DNA from: Chloroflexota bacterium
GTDB lineage: Bacteria; Chloroflexota; Anaerolineae; Promineifilales; Promineifilaceae
Direction of reading: 5' to 3'
NCBI GenBank assembly: GCA_009937635.1
Contig: JAACFF010000016.1
Location: 7,932 to 31,931, forward strand
Length of the DNA stretch: 24,000 bases
Shown: piece by piece, positions 4,434-22,430 of the stretch
Layout of the letters: each line of letters opens with the position of its first letter
Numbering within the stretch: the first letter of the stretch is position 1
Notes under the pieces: generated by a model
Told to the model about the DNA's origin: nothing
The model's database searches: none
What the model saw: the letters and a program-made list of their open reading frames with translations, nothing else
Position numbers and translations under genes: made by a program

Positions 4434-7109
4434 TCATACTAGTTTCAAATCCCTTGCCCGATCAATGGCTTCTAAACGCCGGTGGACGTTTAGTTTTTGG
4501 TAAATATGTTTGATATGGGTGCGTGCGGTGCTTACGGCAATGAATAGTTCCGTAGCGATTTCATTGCTTGACAAACCAGCTACCAGAAGCCGCAGCACCT
4601 GTAGTTCGCGTTCGCTCAAGGGCTCCACCAAAGATGATGCATGCGGCGCTTCTGACTTTTGATGGCGCTTGTTTCTTTGTTCCAAAGTTGCCAGCAATCC
4701 CCCGATATATTCCGGGAAAAGCCCTTGTACGGCCATCGTCCGCAACAGTTCTCCTACAGGTAGGCCTTCACGAATAAACGTGTTTACAAACCCATGGGGT
4801 TCGGCTAGTCTAAGCGCCTGCTTCATTGAGCGTATAGCGTCAGACTTGTTGCCTTGTCGATTGGAGAGTAAAGATCGGGCGACATGAATCTCGATCACCC
4901 TTCCCATGGCGCCGGCATTGTGGGCAATTTCCAGCAGCGTGTCCAACAGATGGATAGCTTGGTCAAAATCCTTTCTGGCATCGAGAACTCGTGCGAGTGC
5001 GAGGTAATATTGCAGATTCTGGAAGCATATATCATCGGCTGCGCTTAAACTCATTTCTTCAATATGCTGCATAGCACGCTGGATATCTTCCTCCGCCAGG
5101 TGCAGCTGGATTGCTAACAAGGCCCCATCAAGGCGGGCCCAAGAGGTCACACCGGCAGCGACTTCTCTGGCCTTTTGTATGGCTTCTCCAGCCCTTTTAT
5201 GATCCTGGGTCGCCAAAAGAGTGTTGACGTAGAAGTAGAGGCCATCCAGAATAGCGTTGGCATTTCCCCACCTTTCACTCAGGTCAAGCCCGGTCCGTGC
5301 ATGATATATGGCGGCATCCAGATCGTTCCACTCCAATAATACGCCGCTCAGAAAGGAATGAAGCAATCCTAATGCTGGGGGTTTCCAACCCCCTCTGCGA
5401 GTAGGCCTTTCAGCATCGTCCAGAATCTCCCGGAATACGGCGTAGGCATCTTGCAATTCCCCGCGCAGAGTTAAAGCATATCCTTTGAAGCACGCAGCAT
5501 AAATAGAGGCGAAATTGTCGCCAGATTTCCTGCTGACCTCCTGCGCTTCTGAGTAGGCTTTGATCGCCGCAAGTAGATCTCCCTCCCATCGATATGCCAG
5601 CCCCAATATCATCAAGGCTAGACCCCTGGTCATATAGTCTTCATCTGGCAAGTTCGCGAGCCCTTCTTGCGCATATTGCAGGACGTGAGTCTGATCGCTT
5701 CTAAATGCTGCAATGCCGCTGCGGATAGTCGCGATCTGACCTGCAATATGTCTGTTCATAGAGGAATTAGAGAGGACGATTTCGGCATTTTGTAATTGTG
5801 CTTCGGCAGCATCCAGTTGGCCGGTAAACAAGGAGATCCACGCCTGGGCGACACTGAGCCTGGGGTGGGAATTGAAATAATTTTCGGGCAACCTGTCTAG
5901 CCAGGCGACAACCGTCTGAATCTCACCATAACTGATTAGGTTGATAGCTCTGCTCTCTATCAGGCTGGCCGTGCGATCAAGATCACCAACTGTGAATGCG
6001 TGGTTGATGGCTTCGTGGGGTAATTCATGGGCTTCAAACCAATAACTGGCGCGTTGATGAAAAAGATGTAAGTCCTCGGAATAAGCTCTTTTGAACCTCG
6101 CCCGAAGCAAATCGGCGAAGAGAGGGTGGTAGCGAAACCACTCCCTGTTGTCGTCCAAGGGGGTGATGAACAAGTTGTTTTGCTCTAATTCGATGAGTAA
6201 CTGGTAACAATTATCCATGCCCGTCACTGCCTGGCATAGAGAAGCGGTTAAGGCATCGAGAATGGATGTCTGTAGCAGGAAATCTTGAATGTTTCTTGAT
6301 TGCCTTTGTAGCACTTCCTCCATCAAGTAATCGGCGATATACCGGTTGTCGCCTGCCAAATTGGCAATAAAAGTATGTTTGTCCATTTGGTCGCGCATGG
6401 ATAGAGCTGCAAGCTGCAAGCCGACGATCCAACCCTCGGTGCACTTGTCTAAAAGTTCAATATCATCTTTTGAGAGATCGAGTCCCATTGACCTGTTCAT
6501 GAAAGCTTCTATTTCTTCTGGAGTAAAGCGTAGGTCCGCCGTGCGAAGTTCGTTTAATTCCCCTTGCCCCCGCAGGCTGCCAAACGGCAAAGGAGGATCT
6601 GCCCGGGTAGCGATGATAAGGTGCATTTGTTGGGGTAGATGGTTAATTATAAAGATCAAGTCATCGTGGATTGTTTTCCCGCCAATCGCGTGATAATCAT
6701 CTAGAACCAGCGTGAAGGAAGAAACAGCCTCCGCTATTTCGTTAATCAGGCCTGACAATAACAGTTGTATTGGCGGCGCTTGTGGGGATTTCAGGCCAGC
6801 AACTGCCGTTGCGCCAAAACCAGGTTGGAGTGCATCAAGGGCAGCGACGACATGAGTCCAGAACCGGGTTGAATCGTTATCGCCACTATCTAGAGTAAGC
6901 CAGGCAACTGGCCAATCACAGTTTCCCGCCCAATCACAAAGAATGGCTGTTTTGCCAAAACCTGCAGGAGCGGAGACGAGCGTGAGCTTGCCATTCAGCC
7001 CGGCTTTCAACTTTTCGATGAGGCGCGGGCGCTGGATGAAAGTCGGCCGCAACCGTGGAATATGCAATTTAGTTTGAAGGAGTACATCGTCCACATAAGC
7101 ATTATACAA
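4434..7109 (-). CDS. LAL/MalT-type large ATP-binding LuxR-family transcriptional regulator
   Basis: 891 aa. N-terminal LLQTKLHIPRLR...RPRL is followed by Walker A SAPAGFGKT and Walker B-like LVLDDYH. The middle is long and TPR-like helical. The C-terminal LuxR HTH is LSERELQVLRLLVAGLSSNEIATELFIAVSTARTHIKHIYQKLNV. Confidence 0.9.
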   Translation of the reverse strand: MYNAYVDDVLLQTKLHIPRLRPTFIQRPRLIEKLKAGLNGKLTLVSAPAGFGKTAILCDWAGNCDWPVAWLTLDSGDNDSTRFWTHVVAALDALQPGFGATAVAGLKSPQAPPIQLLLSGLINEIAEAVSSFTLVLDDYHAIGGKTIHDDLIFIINHLPQQMHLIIATRADPPLPFGSLRGQGELNELRTADLRFTPEEIEAFMNRSMGLDLSKDDIELLDKCTEGWIVGLQLAALSMRDQMDKHTFIANLAGDNRYIADYLMEEVLQRQSRNIQDFLLQTSILDALTASLCQAVTGMDNCYQLLIELEQNNLFITPLDDNREWFRYHPLFADLLRARFKRAYSEDLHLFHQRASYWFEAHELPHEAINHAFTVGDLDRTASLIESRAINLISYGEIQTVVAWLDRLPENYFNSHPRLSVAQAWISLFTGQLDAAEAQLQNAEIVLSNSSMNRHIAGQIATIRSGIAAFRSDQTHVLQYAQEGLANLPDEDYMTRGLALMILGLAYRWEGDLLAAIKAYSEAQEVSRKSGDNFASIYAACFKGYALTLRGELQDAYAVFREILDDAERPTRRGGWKPPALGLLHSFLSGVLLEWNDLDAAIYHARTGLDLSERWGNANAILDGLYFYVNTLLATQDHKRAGEAIQKAREVAAGVTSWARLDGALLAIQLHLAEEDIQRAMQHIEEMSLSAADDICFQNLQYYLALARVLDARKDFDQAIHLLDTLLEIAHNAGAMGRVIEIHVARSLLSNRQGNKSDAIRSMKQALRLAEPHGFVNTFIREGLPVGELLRTMAVQGLFPEYIGGLLATLEQRNKRHQKSEAPHASSLVEPLSERELQVLRLLVAGLSSNEIATELFIAVSTARTHIKHIYQKLNVHRRLEAIDRARDLKLV

Positions 7110-7200: not shown

Positions 7201-7416
7201 ATGCCAATGAACAGCTATCGCAATATCTTGCTGATTGAAGATGATCCGGCCGTCGCGCGCAGTTTGATTGATGGGCTAGAACAAGCCAACTTTCAGGTTA
7301 CGTGGCAAGAAAACGGCCGTGACGGCATCGCCTATGCCCACGATCGCCGCCCTCACCTGATTACCCTCGACGTGTGCCTGCCGAAGTCCTCTCCAACGCT
7401 GACGTCTGCGTGCTAG
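7201..7416 (+). pseudogene. Response-regulator receiver domain fragment (N-terminal ~60 aa only)
   Basis: NILLIEDDPAVARSLIDGLEQANFQVTWQENGRDGIAYAHDRRPHLITLDVCLP is a receiver domain running up to the phospho-Asp strand. Similarity is then lost (KSSPTLTSAC, stop). There is no alpha4-beta5 region and no output domain. Confidence 0.7.
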
Positions 7417-8138
7417 GACAGAAAACGGCCGGGCAGTTATTTTGCGGTGACAATCTGCTGCAAGAAATCGTGTGGGTCAACCAGCGTAAATGCCTGGTCA
7501 TTGGCGTACTGACTGAGTTGGAAGTGACCAATCCCGCTCTACGCAACCAGCTTCGCCCCAACGAAGCCTTCTATTTGCCCATCAGTACCGCGATCAATAA
7601 CCTGTTCGATGAGCCGTCGTCGGTGCAAATCACGGCCCACGTCACAGATGAAAGCCGTATGGTCGAGGCACGCTGCCAGATCGTCGACTATCTGCGCTTG
7701 CGTCATGCCATTGGCAAAGATGAAGTTGGCCAATGGGAGGATGACATTGAATTGACGGCACGCCAGGACATATTGGGGGCCCAGCAGCAGGCAGCCCGCA
7801 CCTTCTCATTTCTGCTGGCGGCAATGGCTGCGGTCTCCTTATTGGTAGGCGGGATTGGCATTCTGAACGTGATGCTGGTTAGCGTCGTCGAGCGCACGCG
7901 CGAGATTGGGGTGCTCCTGGCCGTCGGCGCCCGGTCGCAGGACATAGTCACCCAGTTTTCGCTGGAGGCAATACTCATCAGTGGCTTTGGTGGCCTGCTG
8001 GGCGTTGCCGTAGGCGTATTGAGCATTCCGTTGGTGGTCAATTTCAACCAGGGCGTGGCGCTGCTGGCGCCGGGTAGCATCCCCCTGGCTTTGGGCATTG
8101 CTCCGCCCAGCGTGTTGTCAGCCACTAGAAATCGTTGA
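7374..8138 (+). pseudogene. MacB/FtsX-type ABC transporter permease, 3' fragment with decayed C-terminus
   Basis: It starts inside the periplasmic domain (ADVCVLGQKTAGQLF) and lacks TM1. The FtsX core is SLLVGGIGILNVMLVSVVERTREIGVLLAVGARSQDIV. The expected C-terminal YPA..AA.L.P.EAL signature appears only in other frames (SAQRVVSH; LNTPAEAIEM near 8166-8195), implying frameshifts. No ATPase gene is adjacent. Confidence 0.75.
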
Positions 8139-8209
8139 TGAGCTTTTACTCTATGTCGGTATTCAGCTAAATACTCCAGCTGAAGCAATTGAAATGTGGT
8201 TACCACAGA

Positions 8210-10252
8210 CTATTGCGTACCGACAGAAGAGGCTACCAGATTTCTGACCTGGGCTAGCAAATCATTTTGTTTAGCATTACCCTTATCAATAATATATTGG
8301 ACACCGCCGTCAAGCTGCTGGCGATCTTCGTCGCTTAGATCCTTGGCCGTAATGACGATGATCGGGATCGAGCGATTCTCCTCATTCTGACGTAAAGCCA
8401 GCAAGAATTCAAAACCGTCCATCACCGGCATCATCAAATCTAGCGTAATCAAATCCGGTTTGCGCTCTGATACACGCTGCAGGCCAATAGCGCCGTTTTC
8501 TGCTTCCGATACATCCCAACCATTTTCCTCAAATGTGCGGCGTTGCAGCGTACGTGTTGGCTCGTCATCTTCAACCACCAGGACATGTCTCGTGCCCTTG
8601 GGGAGGGTGTATTGGCGGACCGTCTGCAAGAGTAATTTGCGATCAATCGGCTTGGTCAACGACTCTACTGCACCAAGCGTGTAGCCCATATTTTTGTCGG
8701 CTACTATCGACGCCATGATTACCGGGATGTTCTCCAACTCGGGTTCCGCTTTAAGCTTTTGTAACACAGTCCAGCCATCCATGTCAGGCATCATAATGTC
8801 CAGCGTAATCAGCGATGGCTTCAGCTTACGCGCCAGATCCAATCCTTCTGCTCCGCTGCCAGCTGTCACCACGGCATGGCCATCCAACTTCAGTGTTCTT
8901 GAAATAAGATCGCGGGCAATAGGATCATCATCAATGATCAATATAGAAGATTTCGCTGAAGTGATAGAATCAGCGTCCGCAGCAACATCGATTGATGCGG
9001 CCTTAGCGGCTTCCAGCGCATCCACCTTAGCCGGCAACTCTATGGTGAAAGTCGATCCTTCACCCACCTCACTTGTCGCTGTGAGATCACCACCCATCAT
9101 TCGGCAGAACTTCTGACTAATGGGCAGACCCAGACCTGTTCCTCCAAAGTTTCGCGTTGTCGAATCGTCAGCCTGGGAGAAAGCTTCAAACACGTGGTCT
9201 ATCTTGTCATCGGGAATGCCTATACCCTCATCGCTAACGCTGATAAAGATCTTATCGCCGTCATCGTGCTTCTCTCGCATTGCAGCGACAGTGATCGTAC
9301 CCTCATTTGTGAATTTGGCTGCGTTTGAAAGTAAATTGAAAAGAACTTGCCGGGTCTTTGTCAGATCAGCCCGTATGGTTCCCAGATCTTCGGGAAAGTC
9401 AGTGGCCAGAAGATTGTTGTTTTTGTCGATAAGTGGTTGAACTGTTGACATTGCCTCAGACAGCATTTGCCGGAGATCGAAGCGTTCTAGATAGATGTCC
9501 ATTCTACCGGCTTCGATCTTCGAGAGGTCAAGGATGTCGTTGATCAAACCCAGGAGATGCCGGCCAGCGGCATTGATCTTTTCAAGGTCTGGGACCATCT
9601 CATCATAGCCATCGTCCTCGGCGTCTTCGGCCAACATTTCGCTGTAGCCGATGATGGCATTCATTGGCGTGCGCAATTCATGGCTCATATTGGCCAGGAA
9701 AGAACTCTTCGCCTGATTAGCATTTTTTGCTTCCTGCGTGGCCTGCTCAAGCTGTGCCGTTCGCTGCCGGACAACTTCTTCTAAATCGGCTTGATATTCT
9801 TGCAGCGCACGATTTTTTGATTGGATCTCGGCCATCAGCTCATCACGCCCTTTCCGGGCCATCATCGCCTTTAGTCTGGCGATGATTTCTGTGGTAGGTG
9901 GCTGCACGATGTTCAGATATTTTTGTGCACGTACAGTTTGTTGCGCATTGCCGGTGGGCAAAAAGCGGACATCGTCAAAGAATTGGGTCAATAATTGGGT
10001 CTCAGACACGTCCGCCATCTCGCCAAATTCGAACACGAGTGCGTTCTGTCCGACTTTAGTCGATAAACCGACAACAATCGTGGTCGATTGAGCGGTCCGC
10101 TGCAACGCCCGGCTAATCGTCGAAGCAATCGTTGCCAACCGCGTGGCCAAAATTCCATCGCCGGAAATGGTTTCAGCGATCACCTGAATCTTCTTACGGA
10201 CGTCGGTGATTGAGCTTTGTTCGCTGATATTGATCGTGCCAATGGGTATCAT
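8210..10252 (-). CDS. Hybrid sensor histidine kinase (N-terminal degenerate RsbT-like domain, coiled coil, HisKA, HATPase, REC, REC)
   Basis: 680 aa. H-box is [24 protein letters not shown]-box is [11 protein letters not shown], and G-boxes are VSDEGIGIP and [11 protein letters not shown]. The two receivers are ILIIDDDP...[13 protein letters not shown] and VLVVEDDE...[13 protein letters not shown]. Its ATG abuts the TAG of the upstream PP2C gene. Confidence 0.9.
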
Positions 10253-10867
10253 CTACTTGCGATACCGCACGACAAGACAGGTGGCATCATCATATTGTTT
10301 GCCATAATTGCGTACGATTTTTCTGGCAACAGATCTCGAGCTTTCGTAAATGAGTTGTGGATACTCACTTAATTCGAAACGGTCTTTAATGCCATCACTA
10401 TAAAATGTGAGCACTTCTGTTTCATCCAGCTGAAGTTTTTGTTCTCTAGGGCTTCGCATGCGGCTGCCGACAACGCCCTCAGTCGAAGGTAGGCGGATTG
10501 AGCGAGTGCCGAATTTGCGTATGACAGTATTGCCAACCCCAGTGTAACGCAATTTCCCGCTCGCTAGATCAAGGCTGGCTAATCCGACTGCCGCGCCAAT
10601 GGAACCTCGGATCGCCTCATGCAAGCCTAAAAGGGTGCTAACTACATCTTCTTGCCATTCTGCATCTAAAAAAGTTCGAATTTGCACAGCTATGTCATTA
10701 GCATTAGGTCCATGACCGAGAGCATCGACAATCGCCAAGAACACGGACCCATTACGGGAGCGAACGATGGCGTCATCTCCGCTAACCAACTCGCCAAAGC
10801 ATGGACGGGCAACGGAAGCGTACTCCAGCTCGTCTACATTGCCAAAACTTTCATCAAGCATAACCAT
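10253..10867 (-). CDS. rsbX: RsbX-like PP2C/SpoIIE-family serine phosphatase
   Basis: 204-aa single-domain protein with GDDAIV...LAIVDALGHGPNA and a C-terminal YSDGI...DD(A)T pattern, typical of RsbX-type feedback phosphatases. It sits directly after the RsbT gene. An AGGAA SD precedes the ATG. Confidence 0.8.
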   Translation of the reverse strand: MVMLDESFGNVDELEYASVARPCFGELVSGDDAIVRSRNGSVFLAIVDALGHGPNANDIAVQIRTFLDAEWQEDVVSTLLGLHEAIRGSIGAAVGLASLDLASGKLRYTGVGNTVIRKFGTRSIRLPSTEGVVGSRMRSPREQKLQLDETEVLTFYSDGIKDRFELSEYPQLIYESSRSVARKIVRNYGKQYDDATCLVVRYRK

Positions 10868-10892
10868 TTCCTATTGTTGTTCTCAAATTCCC

Positions 10893-11303
10893 TTATCGGC
10901 GACGCCATTTTCTGATCTGCACCGTCGTGCCCTGCCCCTCAGCGGAGTGAATCTCGAATTCATCCATCAAGCGCTTGACACCTGGAAGGCCAAGCCCCAA
11001 TGTGCCGCTAGAACTATAATTATCGGCTACGGCTTGTTTAATATCGGCAATGCCTGGTCCTTTGTCCTGGGCGACGATTTCAATACCTATTTGGTAGCCC
11101 TTCTCGATCCGATCGATGATTATCTCGCCCTTGTCTGCGTACTTGATGATATTGCGAGCTAACTCAGAAACGGCCGTTGCAATCATCTGCGTTTCGACTT
11201 CGGCAAATTCTATCTCCTTAGCAAACCTACGGGCTTCCAGTAAAGCTCGGGCAACATCTTGTTCCTGAATAATCGGAACACGTCTCTTATCTGATGACAT
11301 CAA
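10893..11303 (-). CDS. rsbT: RsbT-type serine/threonine protein kinase (HATPase_c_2, stressosome switch kinase)
   Basis: About 135 aa. N-box is IATAVSELARNIIKYA, G1 is DKGPGI and G2 is GLGLPGVKRLMDEF. Size and position after RsbS match RsbT. The track start is a TTG at 11303 and the ATG at 11300 is the more likely start. Confidence 0.9.
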   Translation of the reverse strand: MMSSDKRRVPIIQEQDVARALLEARRFAKEIEFAEVETQMIATAVSELARNIIKYADKGEIIIDRIEKGYQIGIEIVAQDKGPGIADIKQAVADNYSSSGTLGLGLPGVKRLMDEFEIHSAEGQGTTVQIRKWRRR

Positions 11304-11333
11304 CCTTTTCCGTAAGTTCGCCCAGATTCAATT

Positions 11334-11717
11334 TTACTTTTGATCCTCAACGAGACCAAATGCGTCGTCCAGATTAAATGCGGCCAGGATGCCCTCTACA
11401 TCGGCATTTAGCTCGATTAATGCTGATACGACGCCCGGTCGCATGCCGGCTACTATCGATCGCGCGCCCATCAGAGAAACCATCGACATTGTATGCCTGA
11501 GCGCCTCAAATTCCTCCAAATCTAATATTTGGAGCCCGGATAAATCGAAAATGACTGCTTGAGCGCCCGACCGCTGTAAGAACTCAAGCAAATCCGCCCG
11601 AAAACGGCGAAGTACGTCATAGGTCAAATCAACTTGAATTGAAGCTACAATGCAATTGCGCGAAAGCTGCAGAGGAATTCGAGCTGAGTTTTCCGCGCCC
11701 AACAAATCAAGAGACAA
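11334..11717 (-). CDS. rsbS: RsbS-type single STAS-domain protein (stressosome scaffold/antagonist)
   Basis: 127 aa that aligns without gaps to B. subtilis RsbS as I recall it (RIPLQLSRNCIVASIQVDL... vs KIPILKLYNCLLVSIQWEL...; LMGARSIVAGMRPGVVSALIELN vs [23 protein letters not shown]). TTG start with GGAGA 6 nt upstream. It overlaps the rsbR stop by 11 nt. Confidence 0.9.
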   Translation of the reverse strand: MSLDLLGAENSARIPLQLSRNCIVASIQVDLTYDVLRRFRADLLEFLQRSGAQAVIFDLSGLQILDLEEFEALRHTMSMVSLMGARSIVAGMRPGVVSALIELNADVEGILAAFNLDDAFGLVEDQK

Positions 11718-12606
11718 GCTTTATCTCCATACCAAGACGATTGTAAGCATCAGATAAGGCATCTTTCATGGTGGCAGTCGTCTTAACCGTGCCAACCTCG
11801 ATACCCAGTTCGACAATGGTCTGGGCAATGGCTGGGGATACGCCGGAAATAGTACAGGAACAGCCCATTAAACGAGTAGCTTTGGTAATCTTTATCAAAT
11901 GGTTAGCAACGGCCGTGTCGACCACCGCAACACCACTGATATCCATGATGAACACCCGCGCCTGGGTCTCGGCGATTTTTTCCAGCGCCGCGTTCATGAT
12001 ATCCTGAGCCCGTTTAGAATCAACAATCCCGACGATCGGCAGCAATAAAATGCCACTCCAAATTTGGGTGACCGGTGTCGACATCTCCATCAGCGATCTG
12101 CTTTGCATGGCCATGGTCTCGTTAACGTGCTGCGAGTAGGTTTCGACGACCACGGCCGTGTCCATGTGCACCTGCTTCATCAGGGCTTTCAAGGTGTCAG
12201 AGGGACCATCCCCGGATCTGTTTGCATCAACAACTTCCGTGAATAATCCCAGAAAAACATTCATGGCCGCAAAATAAGTGCTGAGTGGTAGACCGATCCG
12301 CGCATGCGTGGTTCCTACCCGTTGTCGGCTGCTCATGTACTCATCGTCAATTTCGGCCCGAAAGAATTGGTGCCAATAATTAGTAACCAATCCCTCGACA
12401 CGCTTCTGAACCTGATCATCAGAGAAATATTCGTCATACTCCGGTTGGGTTCTGAGCCAGTCGTAGAAATTATGGACATGTTCCGATATCCTATCAATTA
12501 CAGCGCCAGCCAAATCTCGGATCAAATTGAGGTCATCTTGGGAAATCTGATATAGTTCACGTAATGCTTCCGGATCCAGCCCGGAACCCCTTCTTTCTTC
12601 AATCAT
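11707..12606 (-). CDS. rsbR: RsbR-type stressosome sensor with N-terminal globin-coupled-sensor (protoglobin) domain
   Basis: The N-terminal globin-coupled sensor signature is VHNFYDWL...VTNYWHQFF...RVGTTHARIGLPLSTYF (putative proximal His). The C-terminal RsbR STAS is STPVTQIWSGILLLPIVGIVDSKRAQ...MDISGVAVVDTAVANH...GVSPAIAQTIVELG. I place the start at ATG 12606 (AGGAGGA SD 8 nt upstream) rather than the track's TTG at 12639. Confidence 0.85.
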   Translation of the reverse strand: MIEERRGSGLDPEALRELYQISQDDLNLIRDLAGAVIDRISEHVHNFYDWLRTQPEYDEYFSDDQVQKRVEGLVTNYWHQFFRAEIDDEYMSSRQRVGTTHARIGLPLSTYFAAMNVFLGLFTEVVDANRSGDGPSDTLKALMKQVHMDTAVVVETYSQHVNETMAMQSRSLMEMSTPVTQIWSGILLLPIVGIVDSKRAQDIMNAALEKIAETQARVFIMDISGVAVVDTAVANHLIKITKATRLMGCSCTISGVSPAIAQTIVELGIEVGTVKTTATMKDALSDAYNRLGMEIKLVS

Positions 12607-12668
12607 TAGGATGCTTCCTCCTATCTTTTTCCGCTGCAAATTTCAGCCATTTTCGTCAAAAGACCTTT

Positions 12669-14531
12669 CTACCGGGTCTGCAAGTGGTTCATGGCGAAAT
12701 TAACACCATTTTGCAGGGTTCGTTCGGTGCTAATCCCTTCAAGATGTAAATTGAGTTCAGTAAGTTCCACCGCAACTTGGGGTTGCAGACCGGTAATCAC
12801 AACCTTGGCACCAAGTAAATTCGCCTTTTTGGCAACGCGTATCAAGCTCATTGCCACTGCTTCATCGAGACTCGGAACCCCGGTCAGATCCAGGATGGCC
12901 ACTCTCGCCGATGAGGTATAAAGTCCCTCTGTCAGTAGTTCGCTGGCGTTGCCCAGACGGCGTTCGTCAAGCTCGCCAACTAAGGGCATGACGACAATAT
13001 CATCAGTCAAGGGTATCATCGGTGTTGACAGGGCGTCGATAGCCGCGTTCTGCTGGCGAATAAACTGCTTGACGGACTGGCGCATTGAATCAAAGCTTCT
13101 GGATAAATCGCCAATTTCATCTTTGCGGTCCGTATTGATCGTGATGTCCAAATTGCCGTCCGCCAATTCGCTCGCATTTCCTGCCAGCGTCTCCAAGGGA
13201 CCGGTGATTGACCTGGAAAAGATAATAGCCAGGATCACAATGAGGATCAGTAAAATGATCGAACTGATAAGCAATGTTCGGCCCAATGTTTGGGCAGGGG
13301 CAAAGGCTTCAGCTTCATCAATTTCACTCATGATGACCCAGTTCACGCCTGGTATCTCGAGCGGCTTATATGATGACAGGACTGGGATACCGCGATAGTC
13401 GGGGAAAATGGCCGTTCCTGTTTCACCGGCCTGTGCGGCGCGCGTGCCATCGGTCATGACCTCTTGTAAGCCAATGCTGCTGTTCAAGTTACGAATTTGA
13501 TCGATGGTCTCTTGCTCCGTACCGGTTTCTTGCAGGAGGTCAAAATACTCATCGCTATCCTCAATAAGAAAGCGCGATTGATTGCGTATTGTAAGGTCAT
13601 CACCTACCAGGTAGGTTTCTCCCGAATCACCAAGGCCCATCTGGTTCCACGCCTGGCGGTTGGTCATAATGTCATTAATGCGATCGACGGGCATCTGAAA
13701 TAGCAACACGCCGATCTTTTCGCCGTCATCAAAGATGGGTGAGGCGATGAAGGCGGCCGGGGCATTATAAGAAGGGGCATAAGGATCAAAATCGACCATG
13801 TAAACAAATTCACCTTTGCCTGCGTCCAATGCTGACCTGAATGCTTCAGCGAAATTCGTATCGCTATAAGGCCCGTCGAGCAGCGAAGTGCCATAATCGA
13901 CTTCTTTGAAGACTGTATAGACGATATCACCTTCCGTATTGGCCAAGAAGATGTCGTAATATCCAAAAGTATCCAGGAAGTTGCGGATGATGGGATGATA
14001 AAGCTCGTGTGAATCACTATAACGGCTGCCATCGCCAGGATTATCCAAAAGATGCTTGGAGCCTACCTCAAAGGGATTAGAGGCAATATAAAGATCCTGC
14101 AATAGTTGCGTTGTGGTCTCTTCTGGCCAAAACTCGTCTACGCTGACGCTACTCTGTAAATTGGGAATAAGCCGCGAGAGATACTCCTCCGAATAATAAC
14201 CCCGAAGCTTGTTGGCCGCCTCGCCCACTTCTTCTTGAGAGCGATCCAGCTCGGAGTCGATTTCTCGATAGCTATCGTCAAAGGCCTTGGTCGCTTCAAC
14301 GATCATGCGATCTTCAGAAAGCGTCACGACCTGACCGCTTATTTGCTGGAAGTAGTCTTCAATCTGGTTGGCCTTCATTTCGCGCACGGCCGTCAGTTTG
14401 TTAAGTGATTCTGCTTGCAAGGCGTTCTTGGCGATGGTAAAGCCGATGAAGCCGGTTACACCTACAGCTACAATTGCGATGGCAATGAAGGCTATTAGCA
14501 TTTTCGTCCGGATTCTTAGATTATTGAGCAT
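12669..14531 (-). CDS. Transmembrane dCache-like / HAMP / STAS receptor (membrane-anchored RsbR paralogue)
   Basis: 620 aa. TM1 is about aa 11-33. The ~380-aa extracytoplasmic region has Cache-type motifs (KLTAVREMKANQIEDYF, YDIFLANTEGDIVYT, GVLLFQMP, YRGIPVLSSY). TM2 is about aa 419-438 and HAMP about 439-492 (PLETLAGNASELADGNLD...DEIGDLSRSFDSM). The RsbR-like STAS is about aa 500-615 (STPMIPLTDDIVVMPLVGELDERR...ILDLTGVPSLDEAVA...ITGLQPQVAVELTELN). Confidence 0.85.
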   Translation of the reverse strand: MLNNLRIRTKMLIAFIAIAIVAVGVTGFIGFTIAKNALQAESLNKLTAVREMKANQIEDYFQQISGQVVTLSEDRMIVEATKAFDDSYREIDSELDRSQEEVGEAANKLRGYYSEEYLSRLIPNLQSSVSVDEFWPEETTTQLLQDLYIASNPFEVGSKHLLDNPGDGSRYSDSHELYHPIIRNFLDTFGYYDIFLANTEGDIVYTVFKEVDYGTSLLDGPYSDTNFAEAFRSALDAGKGEFVYMVDFDPYAPSYNAPAAFIASPIFDDGEKIGVLLFQMPVDRINDIMTNRQAWNQMGLGDSGETYLVGDDLTIRNQSRFLIEDSDEYFDLLQETGTEQETIDQIRNLNSSIGLQEVMTDGTRAAQAGETGTAIFPDYRGIPVLSSYKPLEIPGVNWVIMSEIDEAEAFAPAQTLGRTLLISSIILLILIVILAIIFSRSITGPLETLAGNASELADGNLDITINTDRKDEIGDLSRSFDSMRQSVKQFIRQQNAAIDALSTPMIPLTDDIVVMPLVGELDERRLGNASELLTEGLYTSSARVAILDLTGVPSLDEAVAMSLIRVAKKANLLGAKVVITGLQPQVAVELTELNLHLEGISTERTLQNGVNFAMNHLQTR

Positions 14532-14663
14532 ACTATTTGGAAATTCCTTGTGACAGATCTGGACGCCAATTGAACGGTAGCACTCGCATTTTGGCTTAAC
14601 AAGTATATCACCTGCCGCTTGAAATGACTAATATCATAGTCTGGAATATGGGGCAATCGCATA

Positions 14664-15030
14664 CTAACCTGACAGCACCTTAACAAGATAATCTTCATTC
14701 CAAGCCGCTTGAAGTCTCTTGGCTTTGATGCCACCTTTAGCTGCCTTCTCCTGTTTAAGCAGATTAAGCGCCATATGACACATGACCGCCAGGTTTTGGT
14801 CCGTATTCCCTGGCGGACACGACTGTCATCTTCACGAAAAGCCACATCCAAGACCCAGTGCAGGCTGTTTTCGATTTCCCAATGACAGTGTCTTGGTCCG
14901 TGTCTGTAACAACAGATGCACTCCTCGCTTTGGTGGTATTCCGTTACGTTATAACAAGTGTGCGGTTGTTGAAGATGCCCCAACAACAAGTTCAAGCGGA
15001 TGAAATCAAAGTCAAAGAGGGTGGGTATTT
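14664..15030 (-). mobile_element. ISAs1-family (H-repeat-associated) transposase 3' remnant, frameshifted
   Basis: HWEIENSLHWVLDVAFREDDSRVRQG is the conserved C-terminal ISAs1 transposase motif. After a 1-nt frameshift near 14805-14812 the family C-terminus continues in another frame (NTDQNLAVMCHMALNLLKQEKAAKGGIKAKRLQAAWNEDYLVKVLSG, stop at 14664-14666). The N-terminal two-thirds of the transposase is absent. Confidence 0.7.
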
Positions 15031-15540
15031 GTGGTTAGCCATGGCCACCTGGATCTCACCCATGGCATCGCCCATACTCAGTTCCATAGCCAGCTTGCGT
15101 GCCTCGTCTGGCTCGGTCGTTACCTGCCCATGGTAGAGGTCTGGGGCCAGGACGACGTAGCCTTCTTCGGCAAAGCGCCGCGAGACGTCTTTGATGTGCT
15201 CGTTGAGGCCCCACCATTCCTGGATGACGATGATCGCCGGCTGTGCCTTTTGGCCAGGCGCATGGGCCAGGTAGCCCATCAGCTCTGCCCCATCAGGCCC
15301 GGCATAGGTGACAATACCTGTTTCCAGTTCGCCGCTTGCACTGAGACCGGGTTCGGGAGGTGGTTGCGTCGAATCGACGACGGGAGGTGGTGTGCGATCG
15401 GTTACTGGGGTACAGGCAGCGAGCAGCATGTTAGCTGCTGCGCTGCCCAAAACGGCCGTGGCTCTGATGAGAAATTCACGCCGGTCGACACTTCCCACCT
15501 GCCGTTCGCGCACCAGTTCCATGAGTTCAATTCTGTTCAT
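14992..15540 (-). pseudogene. Dienelactone hydrolase-family protein, Tat-signal lipoprotein type, C-terminally truncated by the IS remnant
   Basis: ATG at 15540 with an AAGGAG SD. It has a twin-arginine signal SVDRREFLIRATAVLGSAAANMLLAAC and a DLH N-terminal half, IIVIQEWWGLNEHIKDVSRRFAEEGYVVLAPDLYHG. Similarity to the intact paralogue (20134..20967) ends near nt 15037, before the nucleophile GFCFGG region, and unrelated sequence runs to the stop. Confidence 0.7.
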
Positions 15541-15910
15541 TTGTTGTCTCCTTTTCACAAGCTTGTGTCCCCCCTGGCAAACGGTGCCGGTTAGTAGCCA
15601 CCCATTGATAGACTGCGCGTTCAAACTGCTTGATGCCGGGTACATGATAAAGCGTAGCAAATGGCCGTGCCCACCAAATATAGCGCAGTGCGCTATTTAC
15701 TGCTGCTGCGCCACCGGAAAGCCCACTATCATCAACAAACCATGCTTGGGTTATTCCATCACGCTCTGTAAGGCCAAGTTTTGCCATTTGCTCAGGGATA
15801 GATTGCCATGGAGCAACAGAAATACGGAAATGTGACCACGTCTGCACGAGACGAGCCGTTTTCACTCAAAAACCACAATCGCCATCAATTATGAGTAGAG
15901 GCTTTCTCAT
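15527..15910 (-). CDS. DCC-family (DUF393) thiol-disulfide oxidoreductase with in-frame TGA at the second Cys of CxxC (candidate selenoprotein, or a nonsense pseudogene)
   Basis: ATG 15908-15910 has an AGGAG SD 8 nt upstream. It translates MRKPLLIIDGDCGF-TGA(15866-15868)-VKTARLVQTW... in the same frame as track ORF 15527..15865. The downstream part has DCC-family features (FVDDSG..GGAAAVNSALRYI, YQWVATNRHRLPG). The family motif DGxCxxC is here DGDCGF[TGA]. Confidence 0.55.
15832..15865 (-). promoter_or_regulatory. SECIS-like hairpin immediately 3' of the in-frame UGA
   Basis: mRNA after the UGA reads GUGA AAACGGCU CGUCU CGUGC AGACG UGG UCAC. The upper stem is CGUCU/AGACG (15849-15853 with 15839-15843) and the apical loop CGUGC contains GU about 19-20 nt after the UGA. 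The lower stem is GUGA/UCAC, or alternatively GGCU/GGUC with a bulged U. The geometry resembles the E. coli fdhF SECIS as I recall it. Confidence 0.4.
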
Positions 15911-20133: not shown

Positions 20134-20967
20134 CTACTCGCTGGCCATGAGGTTCTTCTCAAGGAAAGCCAGGGTTTGCTGCCATGCCTCTCTCGCAGGG
20201 CCCGGCTGATTGTAGTTCTCTTCATTCAAGAAGGCATGGCCTACGCCAGGGTAGATAGTGATCTCATTCTCGATGTCCAGAGAATTAAGAGCTGCTTCAA
20301 ATTCCAGCACTTCAGCGGGAAAGATGGTGTTGTCTTCTTCGGCAAAGATGCCGAGAACCGGCTGCGCTTCGGTCAACGGCCGCAGCAAATCAGGTTCGGT
20401 GACCACAGCGCCATAGTACATGATTGTCAGCGCCAGATTCTCAGATTGGCGCAGGCCTAGCTGCAAGGAATGGCCCCCGCCAAAGCAGAAGCCCATGGAA
20501 GCGACACGCTGCGTGTCAACAGAATCGAGGCTGCGCAGGTAGGCCAGGCCGCTGTCGACATCTGTCTCCACTTGCTCTTGCGGCGTTGTGATGCGCAGCC
20601 AGAGCGCACGAGGAAAGGCGGCCGTTACATTGCCACGGTAGGCGTCGGGCGCGAAGACGACGTATCCCTCCTTGGCCAGGGCATCGGCTAATAGGGTGAT
20701 GCCCTCGTTTAATCCCCACCATTCGTGGATCAACAAGACCGCCGGGTGGGGCCCGGGTCCCTGCGGTGTGGCCAGATAGCCATATAGCTTTTGACCATCG
20801 ATATTTTCGTATTCTATGTTGGCAACGTCGGCCGTGTCGCTGCCAAATAGGCTGTCAAAGATGATCGCGCCGGCAAAAAGGGCGATAAGGAGCAGAAAGA
20901 GGGCAAGAAGCGCAAGTACGATGCGCTTCAGCCAGGTCATGAATCTTGACGAATTGCCTTCGGCCAT
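20134..20967 (-). CDS. Dienelactone hydrolase-family protein, membrane-anchored, intact
   Basis: I start it at ATG 20967 (GGAGGA SD 8 nt upstream). The track's 363-aa ORF extends 5' over the decarboxylase gene's 3' end with no hydrolase similarity. It has a TM anchor IVLALLALFLLLIALFAGAII and the DLH motifs LLIHEWWGLNE, nucleophile GFCFGGG, and GVGHAF. Confidence 0.85.
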   Translation of the reverse strand: MAEGNSSRFMTWLKRIVLALLALFLLLIALFAGAIIFDSLFGSDTADVANIEYENIDGQKLYGYLATPQGPGPHPAVLLIHEWWGLNEGITLLADALAKEGYVVFAPDAYRGNVTAAFPRALWLRITTPQEQVETDVDSGLAYLRSLDSVDTQRVASMGFCFGGGHSLQLGLRQSENLALTIMYYGAVVTEPDLLRPLTEAQPVLGIFAEEDNTIFPAEVLEFEAALNSLDIENEITIYPGVGHAFLNEENYNQPGPAREAWQQTLAFLEKNLMASE

Positions 20968-21026
20968 GTGAATATCCTCCAATTGCAGATCGATTCTTTG
21001 TCGTGGTGAGACAAGCTGGACCAATC

Positions 21027-22430
21027 TTAGTACATTGCGTCTTGCAGCGCCTGCCAACAAATTTCGGCATCCTGCATTTCTGTCTGCCAGTTGGAAAAGG
21101 CGGCGCGCATGGCGGGGATGCCTTTGTACTGGGTGGGAGTGAGGTAAACACGGCCGTCGTCGCGCAGCCGCGCCAGGATCTGCTGCACCTGGATCATCGT
21201 TGGTTCGCCGGCCAAAGTGAAACAAGTGACATTAAGATTGACCGGGGCCAGCAAGCGGAATTGTACTGAATCAGCAGCTTGCTGCCCCAGCCATTCAGCC
21301 TGGGCGCAGTTGCGTTCAACGATATCCTGGTAGCCGGTACGGCCGTAAGCCATTAACGTCATCCATGCCGGTAAGGCGCGAAAACGGCGTGAGTTTTGTG
21401 GCGTCCAATGGACGAGGCCGGGTGTTTCGTCCGCACTGGTGGGGCCAAGATAAACGGCCGCATTACGGAAGACGGCGAGCTGTAGATCGGGGTGGCGCGA
21501 GAACTGCATCGCCGAATCGTAAGGCACGTTAAGCCATTTGTGGGCGTCAATGGTGATGGAATCGGCCGTTTCCATGCCTGCAACCAATTGCGTGTAGCGA
21601 GGCGAGCAGGCAGCGAAACCGCCAAAAGCGCCATCCACGTGTAACCAGAAGTTAAAATTGTTTTTCAGACGGGAGATCGCCTGCAGATCGTCAAAATCAA
21701 CCGTGTTCACCGTGCCCGCATTGCCCACGACCACACATGGCTGGCCCTCAAGAGCCTGCAATTGTTGCGCCAGTGCGGTCACATCTACCGCCTCCCGGCC
21801 GGGCAATGTGGGGATTGGCATCACCTGCCTGCCCATGCCCAGCATGGCCAGGGCTTTATAAATGCTGGAATGGGGCGTCGCCGAAAGAACGGGCAGTGGT
21901 TCCAGGCTATATATCCCCTCTTCTGCGGCATCGATGCCATGTTGCAAAGCTGCCCATTGTCGCGCCTGGGCCAGCCCCACGAGGTTGCTAACAGTGGCTC
22001 CGCTGACAAAGGTGCCCCAAAACGTTGAGGGCAGGCCAAACATCTGGCGTAGGAGATGGATGGTCTCTTGCTCTACCTGGGGTGCGATGGAATCTTCATT
22101 GGCGGCGACATTCTGATCGTAGACGGCCGCCAGCCAGTCGCCCAACAGCGCGGCAGGGGTGGCGCCTCCGGTCACGAAGCCCAGGTATCGTGGACCGGCG
22201 CTGCCAGAGAGACCTGGACCATATCGGGTTGTGAACTGCGCCAGGGCTTCTATGGTGCCTGCGCCATTTGCGGGTAACTTGAGGTGCCAGGCATTTTCAA
22301 AGTGCCTGGTACCTGGGTTCATCGCAACTGGCTGGGTGGGCAGGTTGTCGAGAAAGGCAATGGCCTCGCGAACGGCCGTTTCTAGTAGCTGCTTTCTATT
22401 TTGTTGATCATTGCGCAGGGTCTGGTCCAT
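21027..22430 (-). CDS. Group II pyridoxal-phosphate-dependent decarboxylase
   Basis: The PLP-lysine motif is [17 protein letters not shown], with upstream [14 protein letters not shown] and [18 protein letters not shown] start it at ATG 22430, 28 nt after the cupin stop. The track start at 22499 would overlap the cupin gene. Confidence 0.85.

Follow-up and report, generated by a model that had tools for sequence, protein, structure and literature searches.

How does a stressosome that lacks a sigma-factor branch pass its signal to an output, and which inputs feed it? These questions are raised by six genes in a Chloroflexota contig (JAACFF010000016.1), which we analysed within a window of 24,000 nt. 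All six are co-directional on the minus strand, running from 14531 to 8210, and encode, in order, a dCache-HAMP-STAS receptor, a globin-RsbR, RsbS, RsbT, RsbX, and a hybrid histidine kinase. A sequence-only reading of this stretch had proposed a single unit of six genes, and its coordinates and spacings (5' to 3': 29 or 62 nt, an 11-nt overlap, 30 nt, 25 nt, and 0 nt, from the ORF coordinates) agree exactly with the ORF listing. Its domain assignments were likewise supported by profile search, with every Pfam call exceeding the curated cut-off—dCache_1, HAMP, and STAS in the first product, Protoglobin and STAS in the second, STAS in the third, HATPase_c_2 in the fourth, SpoIIE (PP2C) in the fifth, and HisKA, HATPase_c, and two Response_reg domains in the sixth. 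In the rest of the window, Pfam scans covering the larger ORFs detected neither a sigma factor nor an HPt domain nor an intact response regulator, in line with that reading; the sole receiver remnant there is a 69-aa plus-strand fragment at about 7207-7416. The gene-neighbourhood survey that it had suggested, once run, found the same gene order in other phyla, and the locus itself was recovered from several metagenomes, such that the arrangement is not due to chance. Together, these predictions support an operon of the stressosome type whose output is two-component and for which the window contains no sigma branch. The unit is flanked by a candidate sigma-70-like promoter some 70 nt ahead of the first gene (14602-14630, minus strand; TAGTCA-17-TATACT, extended TG, 9/12 matches) and, directly after the kinase stop, by a weak candidate hairpin with a T-rich tail (8195-8207, minus strand; 5 pairs, 3-nt loop), both of them consensus matches only; such hairpin sites are as frequent in the region as expected from shuffled sequence. 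The surroundings also contain gene debris: truncated hydrolase and FtsX genes, a transposase-like fragment, and the receiver fragment.

Judged by sequence, the core of the operon is a Vibrio-type globin-coupled stressosome module. The globin-RsbR (11707-12639, minus strand; 310 aa from a TTG, or 299 aa from the ATG at 12606 chosen in public gene calls) joins a Protoglobin domain (3e-29) to a STAS domain (1e-13) and is orthologous to the stressosome sensor of V. vulnificus, matching VvRsbR (7O0I chain B, 'anti-anti-sigma factor') over residues 22-306 with an E value of 1e-99. Both phospho-threonine positions are retained (VDT 240-242 and AQT 272-274), and the His in 'GTTHARIG' aligns with that of VvRsbR 'GEIHARVG'. 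RsbS (11334-11717, minus strand; 127 aa), a putative single-STAS scaffold, has V. vulnificus RsbS (7O0I, E 7e-18) as its closest solved relative, with RsbS of B. subtilis and Listeria next. At the position of B. subtilis Ser59 it carries Leu67, whereas the alignment places Ser in Bacillus and Listeria and Gly in Vibrio. The loss of this phospho-serine had been noted earlier as one element of a combination not known to be described; the fact stands but is not new, as the residue is absent in all 12 globin-RsbR loci examined and its absence was previously reported for V. brasiliensis (PMC4976288). RsbT (10893-11303, minus strand; 136 aa; HATPase_c_2 7e-15) is a predicted GHKL serine/threonine kinase with intact boxes (N-box E47..N51, G1 D80xGxG, G2 G103xGxP) and 6463 homologues, many labelled RsbT by their sources. 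It is followed by a single-domain PP2C phosphatase of the RsbX type (10253-10867, minus strand; 204 aa; SpoIIE/PP2C 3e-11) with the motifs DALGHG, SDG, and DD all present, and rsbX comes after rsbT in every related locus.

The first gene (12669-14531, minus strand) encodes a membrane-bound RsbR paralogue of 620 aa, listed in public databases as a 610-aa version starting at Met11. Its two transmembrane segments, the only ones among the six products, fall at about residues 11-33 and 419-441 (hydrophobic segments 5-35 and 413-447). Between them lies a predicted extracytoplasmic dCache domain (PF02743, 1e-14, 55 bits against a cut-off of 45; matched part 13332-13964, aa 190-400), and the second is followed by HAMP (PF00672, 2e-13, profile positions 2-52 of 53; 13068-13220, aa 438-488) and STAS (7e-12; 12744-13022, aa 504-596, from Pfam and comparison with solved structures). 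The best solved relatives of this STAS domain are RsbR (E 1e-17) and YtvA (1.7e-14), and the NCBIfam YtvA_fam model matches linker and STAS together at 8.7e-23; the earlier assignment of an RsbR-type STAS to a dCache-HAMP receptor is thus upheld. At both RsbR phospho-sites the alignment places Glu (Glu557 and Glu589), with 'SLDEAVA' set against Listeria RsbR 'VVDTMVA' (T175) and 'VAVELTE' against 'IAQTIVN' (T209). YtvA likewise carries Glu at these positions (E168/E202; PMC3019169), and the shared residues suggest that the receptor would serve as an accessory sensor that cannot itself be phosphorylated, a role put forward for YtvA of Bacillus. With RsbS, YtvA alone formed no stressosome, and its signalling role was positive only (PMC3944199). 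The analogy is not uniform across the receptor family, however, where the phospho-site columns vary among E, S, P, Q, A, and D.

In a different view of the receptor, it merely shares the operon and acts outside the core, either as a separate membrane antagonist that captures or releases RsbT on its own or as an RsbV-like partner of another kinase. Sites not conserved as Thr would exclude the protein from the RsbT/RsbX phosphorylation cycle, a dimer that spans the membrane may fit poorly into a closed particle, and in one related locus (L002) another HAMP-PAS-STAS membrane protein sits a few genes away, outside the module. We nevertheless consider this possible but rather doubtful: the STAS domain and linker are nearer to RsbR and YtvA than to the TM1442 antagonist (RsbV/SpoIIAA-type; 3e-4), YtvA is itself a non-phosphorylatable RsbR paralogue able to work within stressosomes, and the receptor gene lies immediately upstream of globin-RsbR-S-T-X in 9/9 independent contexts, which, where labelled, belong to Chloroflexota, Latescibacterota, Planctomycetota, and Acidobacteriota. 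The receptor-STAS protein is a conserved and widespread module, not peculiar to this operon.

At the output end, the hybrid histidine kinase (8210-10252, minus strand; 680 aa) is predicted to be soluble and consists of an N-terminal domain that we call psiT, a helical linker, HisKA, HATPase_c, and two receivers. Pfam and a motif check locate the HisKA (DHp) domain at 9506-9712, with phospho-acceptor His190, and the HATPase_c domain at 9026-9367; the receivers span 8243-8944 (Response_reg 6e-46 in two stretches; REC1 at aa 437-545, REC2 at about aa 557-670). His190, the N, G1, and G2 boxes, and the receiver residues Asp485 and Asp605 are all intact by motif.

The psiT domain (9848-10252, minus strand; kinase aa 1-135) matches no Pfam or NCBIfam family, and weak RsbA_anti_sig matches were found in 7/35 members. 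Its kinship to RsbT was invisible to all sequence-versus-sequence searches and emerged from profile-profile comparison and a structure model. In hhalign, the psiT family aligned with the RsbT family across the entire fold except the ATP lid (probability 97.5%, E 7e-12); about 20 residues are missing at the lid, the G1/G2 boxes are lost, and the N-box Asn has become Arg. The AF2 model (pLDDT 90.8, pTM 0.85) returned only RsbW, UsfX, or SpoIIAB among its top 16 Foldseek matches in the PDB. These comparisons bear out the earlier suggestion of an RsbT-like pseudo-domain at the start of the kinase, and we regard psiT as a predicted degenerate RsbT/RsbW/SpoIIAB fold without catalytic motifs.

Could the kinase be an unrelated neighbour, placed beside rsbX by rearrangement, so that the six genes do not form one pathway? 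The debris around the locus would fit such a history, as would the closest complete genome, where one copy of the five-gene input module (L001) has no kinase or other co-directional output gene after RsbX. Against this, the kinase start codon abuts the RsbX stop codon both here and at a second locus in the sister genome, and psiT is itself an RsbT homologue. Scanning 185,579 species genomes with the psiT motif alone recovered 16 loci, in 15 of which the psiT protein directly follows R-S-T-X; conversely, among nine loci located by means of other genes, eight encode a protein beginning with psiT after RsbX. We thus judge a chance neighbour to be very improbable. One psiT protein (L013) has no stressosome genes within 5.8 kb upstream, and together with L001 it indicates that the linkage is strong, not absolute. 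An exhaustive search placed psiT at the N terminus in nearly all of 100 representatives, heading kinases, hybrid kinases with or without Hpt, PAS/GAF-kinases, and PP2C phosphatases. As with the receptor, psiT is a conserved, widespread module and not peculiar to this operon.

Five of the six genes here share the published Vibrio-type architecture (Heinz 2022, PMC9237108), in which HisKA/REC phosphorelay proteins come after a globin-RsbR RSTX module; the membrane receptor and psiT are the additions. The sequence-only reading had taken the whole combination to be undescribed, which is too broad given this match, the known RsbS trait, and the recurrence of the combination elsewhere, but for the receptor-STAS protein and for psiT we found no description in the searchable literature. 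In V. vulnificus, rsbX is co-transcribed with the downstream kinase gene (PMC10436020). No VvRsbT-VvD1 interaction was detected, and phosphorylation of the output by RsbT was preferred over stable binding (PMC9237108). The known RsbT-receiving module, RsbU_N with a coiled-coil linker, is found on PP2C, GGDEF, and kinase outputs (PMC12143880), and most proteins downstream of globin-type modules lack RsbU_N (PMC9237108). By adjacency and by analogy, we infer that psiT is an RsbT-receiving adaptor, a functional analogue of RsbU_N, and it may explain how stressosome complexes signal to their outputs.

The reading that we favour, at a probability of roughly 0.6, is a Vibrio-type globin-coupled stressosome with an extra membrane input and an RsbT-related output adaptor. 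Globin-RsbR and RsbS would build a STAS-domain core that holds RsbT, and RsbX would reset this core by taking phosphate off RsbR. The receptor would supply a second input, its outward-facing dCache domain sensing a ligand and HAMP relaying the signal to a STAS domain that probably depends on the globin-RsbR/RsbS core, as the YtvA analogy suggests; if incorporated, the receptor would also bring the complex to the membrane. A change in heme ligand (O2-type) or in the dCache signal would release RsbT, which may then bind psiT on the kinase. Because psiT is joined to the DHp helix by the helical linker, such binding could alter the linker and switch His190 autophosphorylation, with phosphotransfer to the two receivers and on to partners encoded elsewhere.

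Two other roles for psiT bear on the last steps of this scheme. In the first, psiT mimics RsbT and docks the kinase on the STAS core (RsbS/RsbR), the kinase being sequestered there until a change in the state of the core releases or activates it, with RsbT as competitor or phosphorylating trigger and not as the ligand that psiT binds. The overall RsbT/RsbW/SpoIIAB fold is kept, and the main known partners of this fold are STAS proteins (RsbV, SpoIIAA, RsbS), with complexes among the Foldseek matches. Moreover, the nearly invariant R38, S44, and R48 lie, in the AF2 model, on the helix lining the former nucleotide pocket, which we take to be the face approached by STAS in SpoIIAB-SpoIIAA complexes. 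Yet the deleted lid and G1/G2 region presumably formed much of the STAS-contacting surface in SpoIIAB-type complexes. In the known pathway logic, moreover, outputs are switched on by free RsbT by way of an adaptor at their N terminus (PMC12143880), and we consider docking on the core unlikely. In the second, which we rate as quite improbable, psiT is no more than a remnant that serves structure or dimerisation, or its binding partner is unrelated, and RsbT transiently phosphorylates the kinase on Ser/Thr, as proposed for VvD1 and reported for a Moorella diguanylate cyclase. This would suit an RsbT that is catalytically intact by its motifs, alongside an RsbS and a receptor STAS without canonical acceptor residues. 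However, phosphorylation and docking are compatible, and psiT might provide the dock for phosphorylation; a mere remnant would not be expected to stay almost always N-terminal, nor to keep about 30-40% identity and near-invariant residues across many phyla and effector types, as psiT does.

The six consecutive minus-strand genes between 14531 and 8210 were recovered in an ORF listing exactly where the sequence-only reading had placed them, with the spacings it had given (29 nt, or 62 nt from the ATG of the public call, then an 11-nt overlap and gaps of 30, 25, and 0 nt). Pfam supported every domain named in that reading, each over its curated cut-off—dCache_1, HAMP, and STAS in the first product, Protoglobin and STAS in the second, STAS in the third, HATPase_c_2 in the fourth, SpoIIE/PP2C in the fifth, and HisKA, HATPase_c, and two receivers in the sixth. 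Among the six products, only the first has transmembrane segments, two of them, lying on either side of dCache. Likewise, Pfam scans of the window's remaining larger ORFs bore out the reported lack of a sigma factor, an HPt domain, and an intact response regulator. The unit has a promoter-like site at one end and a weak hairpin at the other, both of them consensus matches only, and the identical locus is present in several metagenomes.

In our assessment, the locus is a true stressosome operon that belongs to the published Vibrio type and is enlarged by two conserved modules: a membrane receptor at its start and, within its last gene, a degenerate RsbT-like domain that we call psiT. The globin-RsbR matched its V. 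vulnificus counterpart, VvRsbR (PDB 7O0I chain B), with an E value of 1e-99 over 285 residues, against 5e-28 for Listeria RsbR. Its Protoglobin match reached 3e-29, and the histidine of its 'GTTHARIG' motif, which aligns with that of 'GEIHARVG' in VvRsbR, is probably the proximal histidine. Both phospho-threonine sites (T171 and T205 in B. subtilis) are kept in this protein, at VDT 240-242 and AQT 272-274, so RsbT and RsbX still have a substrate. RsbS matched the RsbS of 7O0I at 7e-18, followed by those of B. subtilis (5e-14) and Listeria (2e-13). RsbT, encoded after RsbS, matched HATPase_c_2 at 7e-15 and has intact N, G1, and G2 boxes on motif inspection, and RsbX matched SpoIIE/PP2C at 3e-11 across its entire 204 residues with the metal-binding motifs kept.

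This arrangement has close precedents. Modules with a globin-RsbR and RsbS, RsbT, and RsbX have been surveyed in Proteobacteria, Lentisphaerae, Bacteroidetes, and Cyanobacteria, with eleven downstream architectures listed, HisKA/REC phosphorelays among them (Heinz 2022, PMC9237108), and in V. vulnificus rsbX is co-transcribed with the downstream kinase gene (PMC10436020); five of the six genes thus represent an already published architecture. Like the V. vulnificus and V. brasiliensis systems, the operon combines an orthologous globin-RsbR, an RsbS nearest to VvRsbS, and an rsbX directly after rsbT (PMC9237108, PMC4976288, PMC10014275) with an RsbS that lacks the Bacillus phospho-serine and a sensor kinase gene after rsbX, a non-sigma output of the kind known to be co-transcribed in Vibrio; neither rsbU/V/W nor sigB is found in the window. 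Unlike them, it begins with a membrane-bound dCache-HAMP-STAS paralogue of RsbR. The absence of RsbR paralogues is a listed feature of the Vibrio type (Heinz 2022, PMC9237108), whereas the first gene here encodes an RsbR/YtvA-type STAS domain. The output also departs from VvD1/VvD2 of V. vulnificus, being a psiT-HisKA-HATPase-REC-REC protein with no VvD2-like response regulator adjoining. The locus is not categorically new; its receptor and psiT are the parts that we did not find described.

One of the three individual claims to novelty, concerning RsbS, was also already in the literature. The phospho-serine is indeed missing, Leu67 aligning with Ser59 of B. subtilis and Listeria, but such a loss was known before from V. 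brasiliensis (PMC4976288). The same column is glycine in the RsbS of V. vulnificus, a member of the stressosome of solved structure (7O0I), which makes Ser59 a Bacillus/Listeria-type feature rather than a defining one for all stressosomes. In the RsbS alignment across the comparison loci (L001-L030), the column held L, Y, G, A, R, or P in 12 of 12 with a globin-RsbR—a trait, then, of the entire sampled globin-RsbR group—and Ser (one Thr) in all 12 with other RsbR types. Because B. subtilis RsbS with the S59A substitution still signals (PMC3944199), loss of the phospho-serine is compatible with function. In these alignments, the RsbS phospho-serine tracks RsbR type, a pattern suggestive of two mechanistic classes of stressosome.

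The first added module, the receptor (12669-14531), had been read as an extracytoplasmic sensor carrying an RsbR-type STAS domain, and our searches agreed, on a broader scale than anticipated. Its C-terminal 120 residues best matched solved RsbR (E 1e-17) and then YtvA (1.7e-14), with far lower scores against RsbV-like antagonists, and the NCBIfam YtvA model aligned with its linker and STAS domain at 8.7e-23. Glutamates occupy both RsbR phospho-sites (E557 and E589), as E168 and E202 do at the corresponding positions of YtvA (PMC3019169). The family comprises 3860 matches, and among the best 120 of these nearly all share the architecture, at ~50-60% identity, and residues other than Thr, acidic ones included, predominate in the two phospho-site columns. 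Public gene calls of the receptor begin at Met11 and yield 610 residues, compared with 620 for the ORF in the window.

B. subtilis YtvA offers the nearest parallel, being likewise an accessory sensor that is encoded beside a phosphorylatable RsbR and pairs an RsbR-family STAS domain and helical linker with glutamates at both RsbRA phospho-threonine positions. Whereas YtvA is a cytoplasmic LOV protein, the receptor is a two-pass membrane protein with an extracytoplasmic dCache domain and HAMP, and its gene lies within the stressosome operon. Membership in the YtvA family was rejected (there is no LOV domain, and the NCBIfam score of 81 falls far under the cut-off of 250), and we regard the receptor as, at most, YtvA-like in how it may work. 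A second parallel is P. aeruginosa SiaA, in which an extracytoplasmic sensor and HAMP also feed STAS/GHKL/PP2C partner switching and whose NCBIfam model matched the TM2-HAMP region of the receptor at 3.8e-15; the cytoplasmic module of SiaA is a PP2C phosphatase, in contrast to the RsbR-type STAS co-antagonist found here. Chlamydia RsbU is a further partner-switching PP2C phosphatase of receptor type, with a periplasmic Cache domain and HAMP. In a rival reading, the receptor-STAS protein would work outside the stressosome core. YtvA, as an accessory RsbR paralogue, forms no stressosome with RsbS alone and has a solely positive signalling role (PMC3944199), and the receptor gene lies directly upstream of globin-RsbR-RsbS-RsbT-RsbX in nine of nine independent contexts inspected, the labelled taxa being Chloroflexota, Latescibacterota, Planctomycetota, and Acidobacteriota. 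That the dCache-HAMP-STAS gene is conserved suggests direct wiring of an extracellular chemoreceptor into the stressosome in many uncultured bacteria; if true, this would open a defined, ligand-addressable route into a complex for which natural signals have been hard to identify. No Cache/HAMP-type RsbR in a stressosome operon was described in the literature we searched, the coverage of which was incomplete.

Public databases label members of this family (the 120 listed homologues, P0001-P0120) as 'methyl-accepting chemotaxis protein' or 'HAMP domain-containing protein'. We rejected the first identity for the receptor, which has no MCPsignal match and ends in a STAS domain; the sensor-HAMP part accounts for this misannotation. 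By eye, we saw no amino-acid-binding dCache motif in the receptor. In two unrelated relatives, the receptor gene is directly preceded by genes for an ammonium transporter, PII, and glutamine synthetase (L002:1955-7993, L003:846-5727, and L030:1098-4247 of the comparison loci), which may hint at a nitrogen-related extracellular input. A further membrane STAS protein, of Tll0287-like-HAMP-PAS-STAS architecture, is encoded in L002 and L003.

The second module, psiT, occupies residues 1-135 of the hybrid kinase, and its earlier designation as a pseudo-RsbT domain proved correct by profile-profile alignment, an AlphaFold2 model, and Foldseek. Direct sequence searches with the kinase N-terminus were all empty—BLASTP against the window's own RsbT, phmmer against the PDB, Pfam at E values up to 10, and a word-indexed search of 5.8 billion proteins—and the domain was detected only by exhaustive HMMER and by profile and structure methods. 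Exhaustive HMMER yielded 100 representatives, nearly all with the domain at the N-terminus or starting just a few residues in, and a profile of these aligned with a profile of RsbT homologues (hhalign) at 97.5% probability and E 7e-12 over the full RsbT length. The predicted structure (pLDDT 90.8, pTM 0.85) found RsbW, UsfX, or SpoIIAB in all 16 of its best PDB matches by Foldseek, with probability 1.0 and TM scores of 0.55-0.70. While psiT shares the helix-strand order of these proteins, it lacks their N-box Asn (Arg in psiT) and, through a deletion of ~20 residues, their G1/G2 boxes and ATP lid. Also unlike these free-standing proteins, it forms part of effector fusions and has no evident sigma partner. 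On the basis of the motif losses, psiT is a pseudo-kinase domain rather than an active member of the GHKL anti-sigma kinases. No Pfam family matched any of 35 members, and the NCBIfam RsbA anti-sigma model gave weak matches in 7 of the 35. In the kinase proper, the catalytic residues are kept (H190, N310, D341xGxG, G371xGxG, D485, and D605).

Two other identities were considered and rejected. RsbU_N gave no match to psiT at E values up to 10, nor to any of the 35 members, and the predicted psiT model is alpha/beta rather than a helical bundle. The Nostoc hormogonium kinase HrmK aligned with our kinase from residue 64, mostly over the kinase core, with an NCBIfam score of 297, far under the cut-off of 725.

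The effectors headed by psiT are diverse, including plain histidine kinases, REC-REC or REC-Hpt hybrids, PAS- and GAF-kinases, PP2C phosphatases, and PP2C-HATPase_c_2 fusions. We scanned one genome from each of 185,579 species for the psiT motif alone, written as a degenerate DNA pattern ('MIxLG...ATRLATxxSE'), and found 16 loci, distributed among Acidobacteriota, Gammaproteobacteria, Dehalococcoidia, Syntrophobacterales, Flavobacteriaceae, Myxococcota, Pirellulaceae, and Desulfobacterales; as the pattern matches ~15% of known psiT members (by regex count), these are a sample and not a census. In 15 of the 16, an RsbR-RsbS-RsbT-RsbX set comes directly before the psiT gene. The sole exception is a Dehalococcoidia psiT protein (L013:5827-7634), in which no RsbR, RsbS, RsbT, or RsbX gene was detected in the 5.8 kb upstream. 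Approached from the other side, through the receptor or RsbT, the gene after rsbX starts with psiT in 8 of 9 loci, the exception (L001) having an input module without an output; one of the eight, in Cylindrospermum stagnale PCC 7417, encodes a psiT-PP2C output. This strain, Luminiphilus, HTCC2080, and Catenovulum sediminis are cultured organisms with psiT. The neighbourhood survey called for in the sequence-only reading also recovered the window's functional order—receptor-STAS, globin-RsbR, RsbS, a fused RsbT-RsbX, and psiT-kinase—on an Acidobacteriota contig (L009). Most relatives of the receptor-bearing module instead have a psiT-PP2C-RsbW-like output together with an RsbV-like STAS protein, making the kinase output of our operon the rarer variant.

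The signal output of stressosomes beyond Bacillus and Listeria is an explicit open question, and psiT—conserved, RsbT-homologous, and located at the N-terminus of the protein directly after rsbX in many phyla—is a concrete candidate for this step. In RsbU_N, a four-helix bundle with a coiled-coil linker, RsbT binding stiffens the linker, whereupon PP2C, GGDEF, or kinase effectors become active (PMC12143880); no other RsbT receiver is named in the literature that we could read. RsbU_N is absent from most outputs of globin-type modules, and an interaction between VvRsbT and VvD1 was not detected (PMC9237108). Like RsbU_N, which heads PP2C phosphatases, the GGDEF protein MtG of Moorella, and some proteobacterial histidine kinases, psiT is an N-terminal domain of ~80-135 residues with a helical linker after it (in the AlphaFold2 model, the helix of residues 121-132 leads towards the DHp domain) and is fused to interchangeable effectors, PP2C and kinases, beside stressosome genes. 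Given this shared N-terminal place, effector range, and set of gene neighbours, we propose, by analogy, that psiT may be the functional counterpart of RsbU_N. Unlike the four-helix bundle, it is a GHKL-derived alpha/beta domain homologous to RsbT itself, and RsbT binding, proven for RsbU_N, is only presumed for psiT.

Under the mechanism we envisage, RsbT freed from the core would bind psiT. Its homology to RsbT makes a pseudo-dimer like those of RsbW and SpoIIAB an appealing arrangement: a duplicated, inactivated RsbT would pair with free RsbT as half of an RsbW/SpoIIAB-type dimer and, via the helical linker, would switch the fused effector, whether histidine kinase, PP2C phosphatase, or PP2C-RsbW fusion. 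In a rival explanation, RsbT acts solely by phosphorylating the kinase, as Heinz 2022 proposed (PMC9237108). Alternatively, psiT could be an RsbT mimic that docks on the STAS core. The most far-reaching reading—that psiT is the general, hitherto unrecognised RsbT-receiving domain of non-Bacillus stressosomes and that, with the dCache-HAMP-STAS subunit, it would turn the stressosome into a membrane-tethered device integrating an extracellular ligand with intracellular O2/redox signals—is tentative, with a probability that we put at roughly one in three (0.35). If true, it would account for both the missing RsbU_N and the missing stable contact between RsbT and output in Vibrio-type systems. On its own, the window is a modest finding, of value for the two unannotated modules it exposes; their distribution points to the receptor and psiT as widespread, unannotated parts of stressosome signalling, not found described in the literature searched, and psiT speaks to an acknowledged gap, namely the route of RsbT to non-RsbU outputs.

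Several variants of the module were seen among the comparison loci. A single ORF of 366-370 aa, in which the kinase domain precedes that of the PP2C, fuses RsbT and RsbX in two genomes of Acidobacteriota and on two contigs from metagenomes (L009:671-1783, L014:1566-2678, L029:9214-10320, and L030:9303-10403), so that switch kinase and feedback phosphatase would be a single polypeptide. In three loci with a non-globin RsbR (L010:1-1389, L020:164-1510, and L024:5146-6732), the RsbR gene, encoding 448-528 aa, does not head the operon and is instead divergent from RsbS-RsbT-RsbX-psiT-kinase. The closest complete Chloroflexota genome (CP070688.1) holds two copies of the RsbS-RsbT-RsbX set, L001 at ~2.53 Mb and L027 at ~0.53 Mb, with products that are 97%, 89%, and 95% identical between the copies. 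The receptor and globin genes, but no kinase, accompany one copy; in the other, a psiT-kinase 70.6% identical to ours abuts rsbX, and a masked N-run stands at the position of the upstream genes. This may represent either duplication with division of labour or an effect of assembly or masking.

The surroundings of the operon show further features. At 4434-7109, on the same strand and ~1.1 kb downstream of the kinase gene, lies a large MalT-like LuxR-family regulator with TPR_MalT and a GerE helix-turn-helix and without a receiver domain; it has no evident operon link and is not kept beside the module in other phyla. Gene debris is found on both sides of the operon, at 14516-15660 and at 7207-8138. 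Upstream, it comprises an ORF without a Pfam match that has an ISAs1-transposase-like motif (HWEIENSLHWVLDVAFRED) and a dienelactone hydrolase gene cut to its first third, a full copy of which is at 20134-21225. The downstream debris, on the opposite strand, consists of a truncated MacB/FtsX gene and a piece of a receiver domain 69 aa long. Together, these flanking remnants suggest past rearrangement around the cluster.
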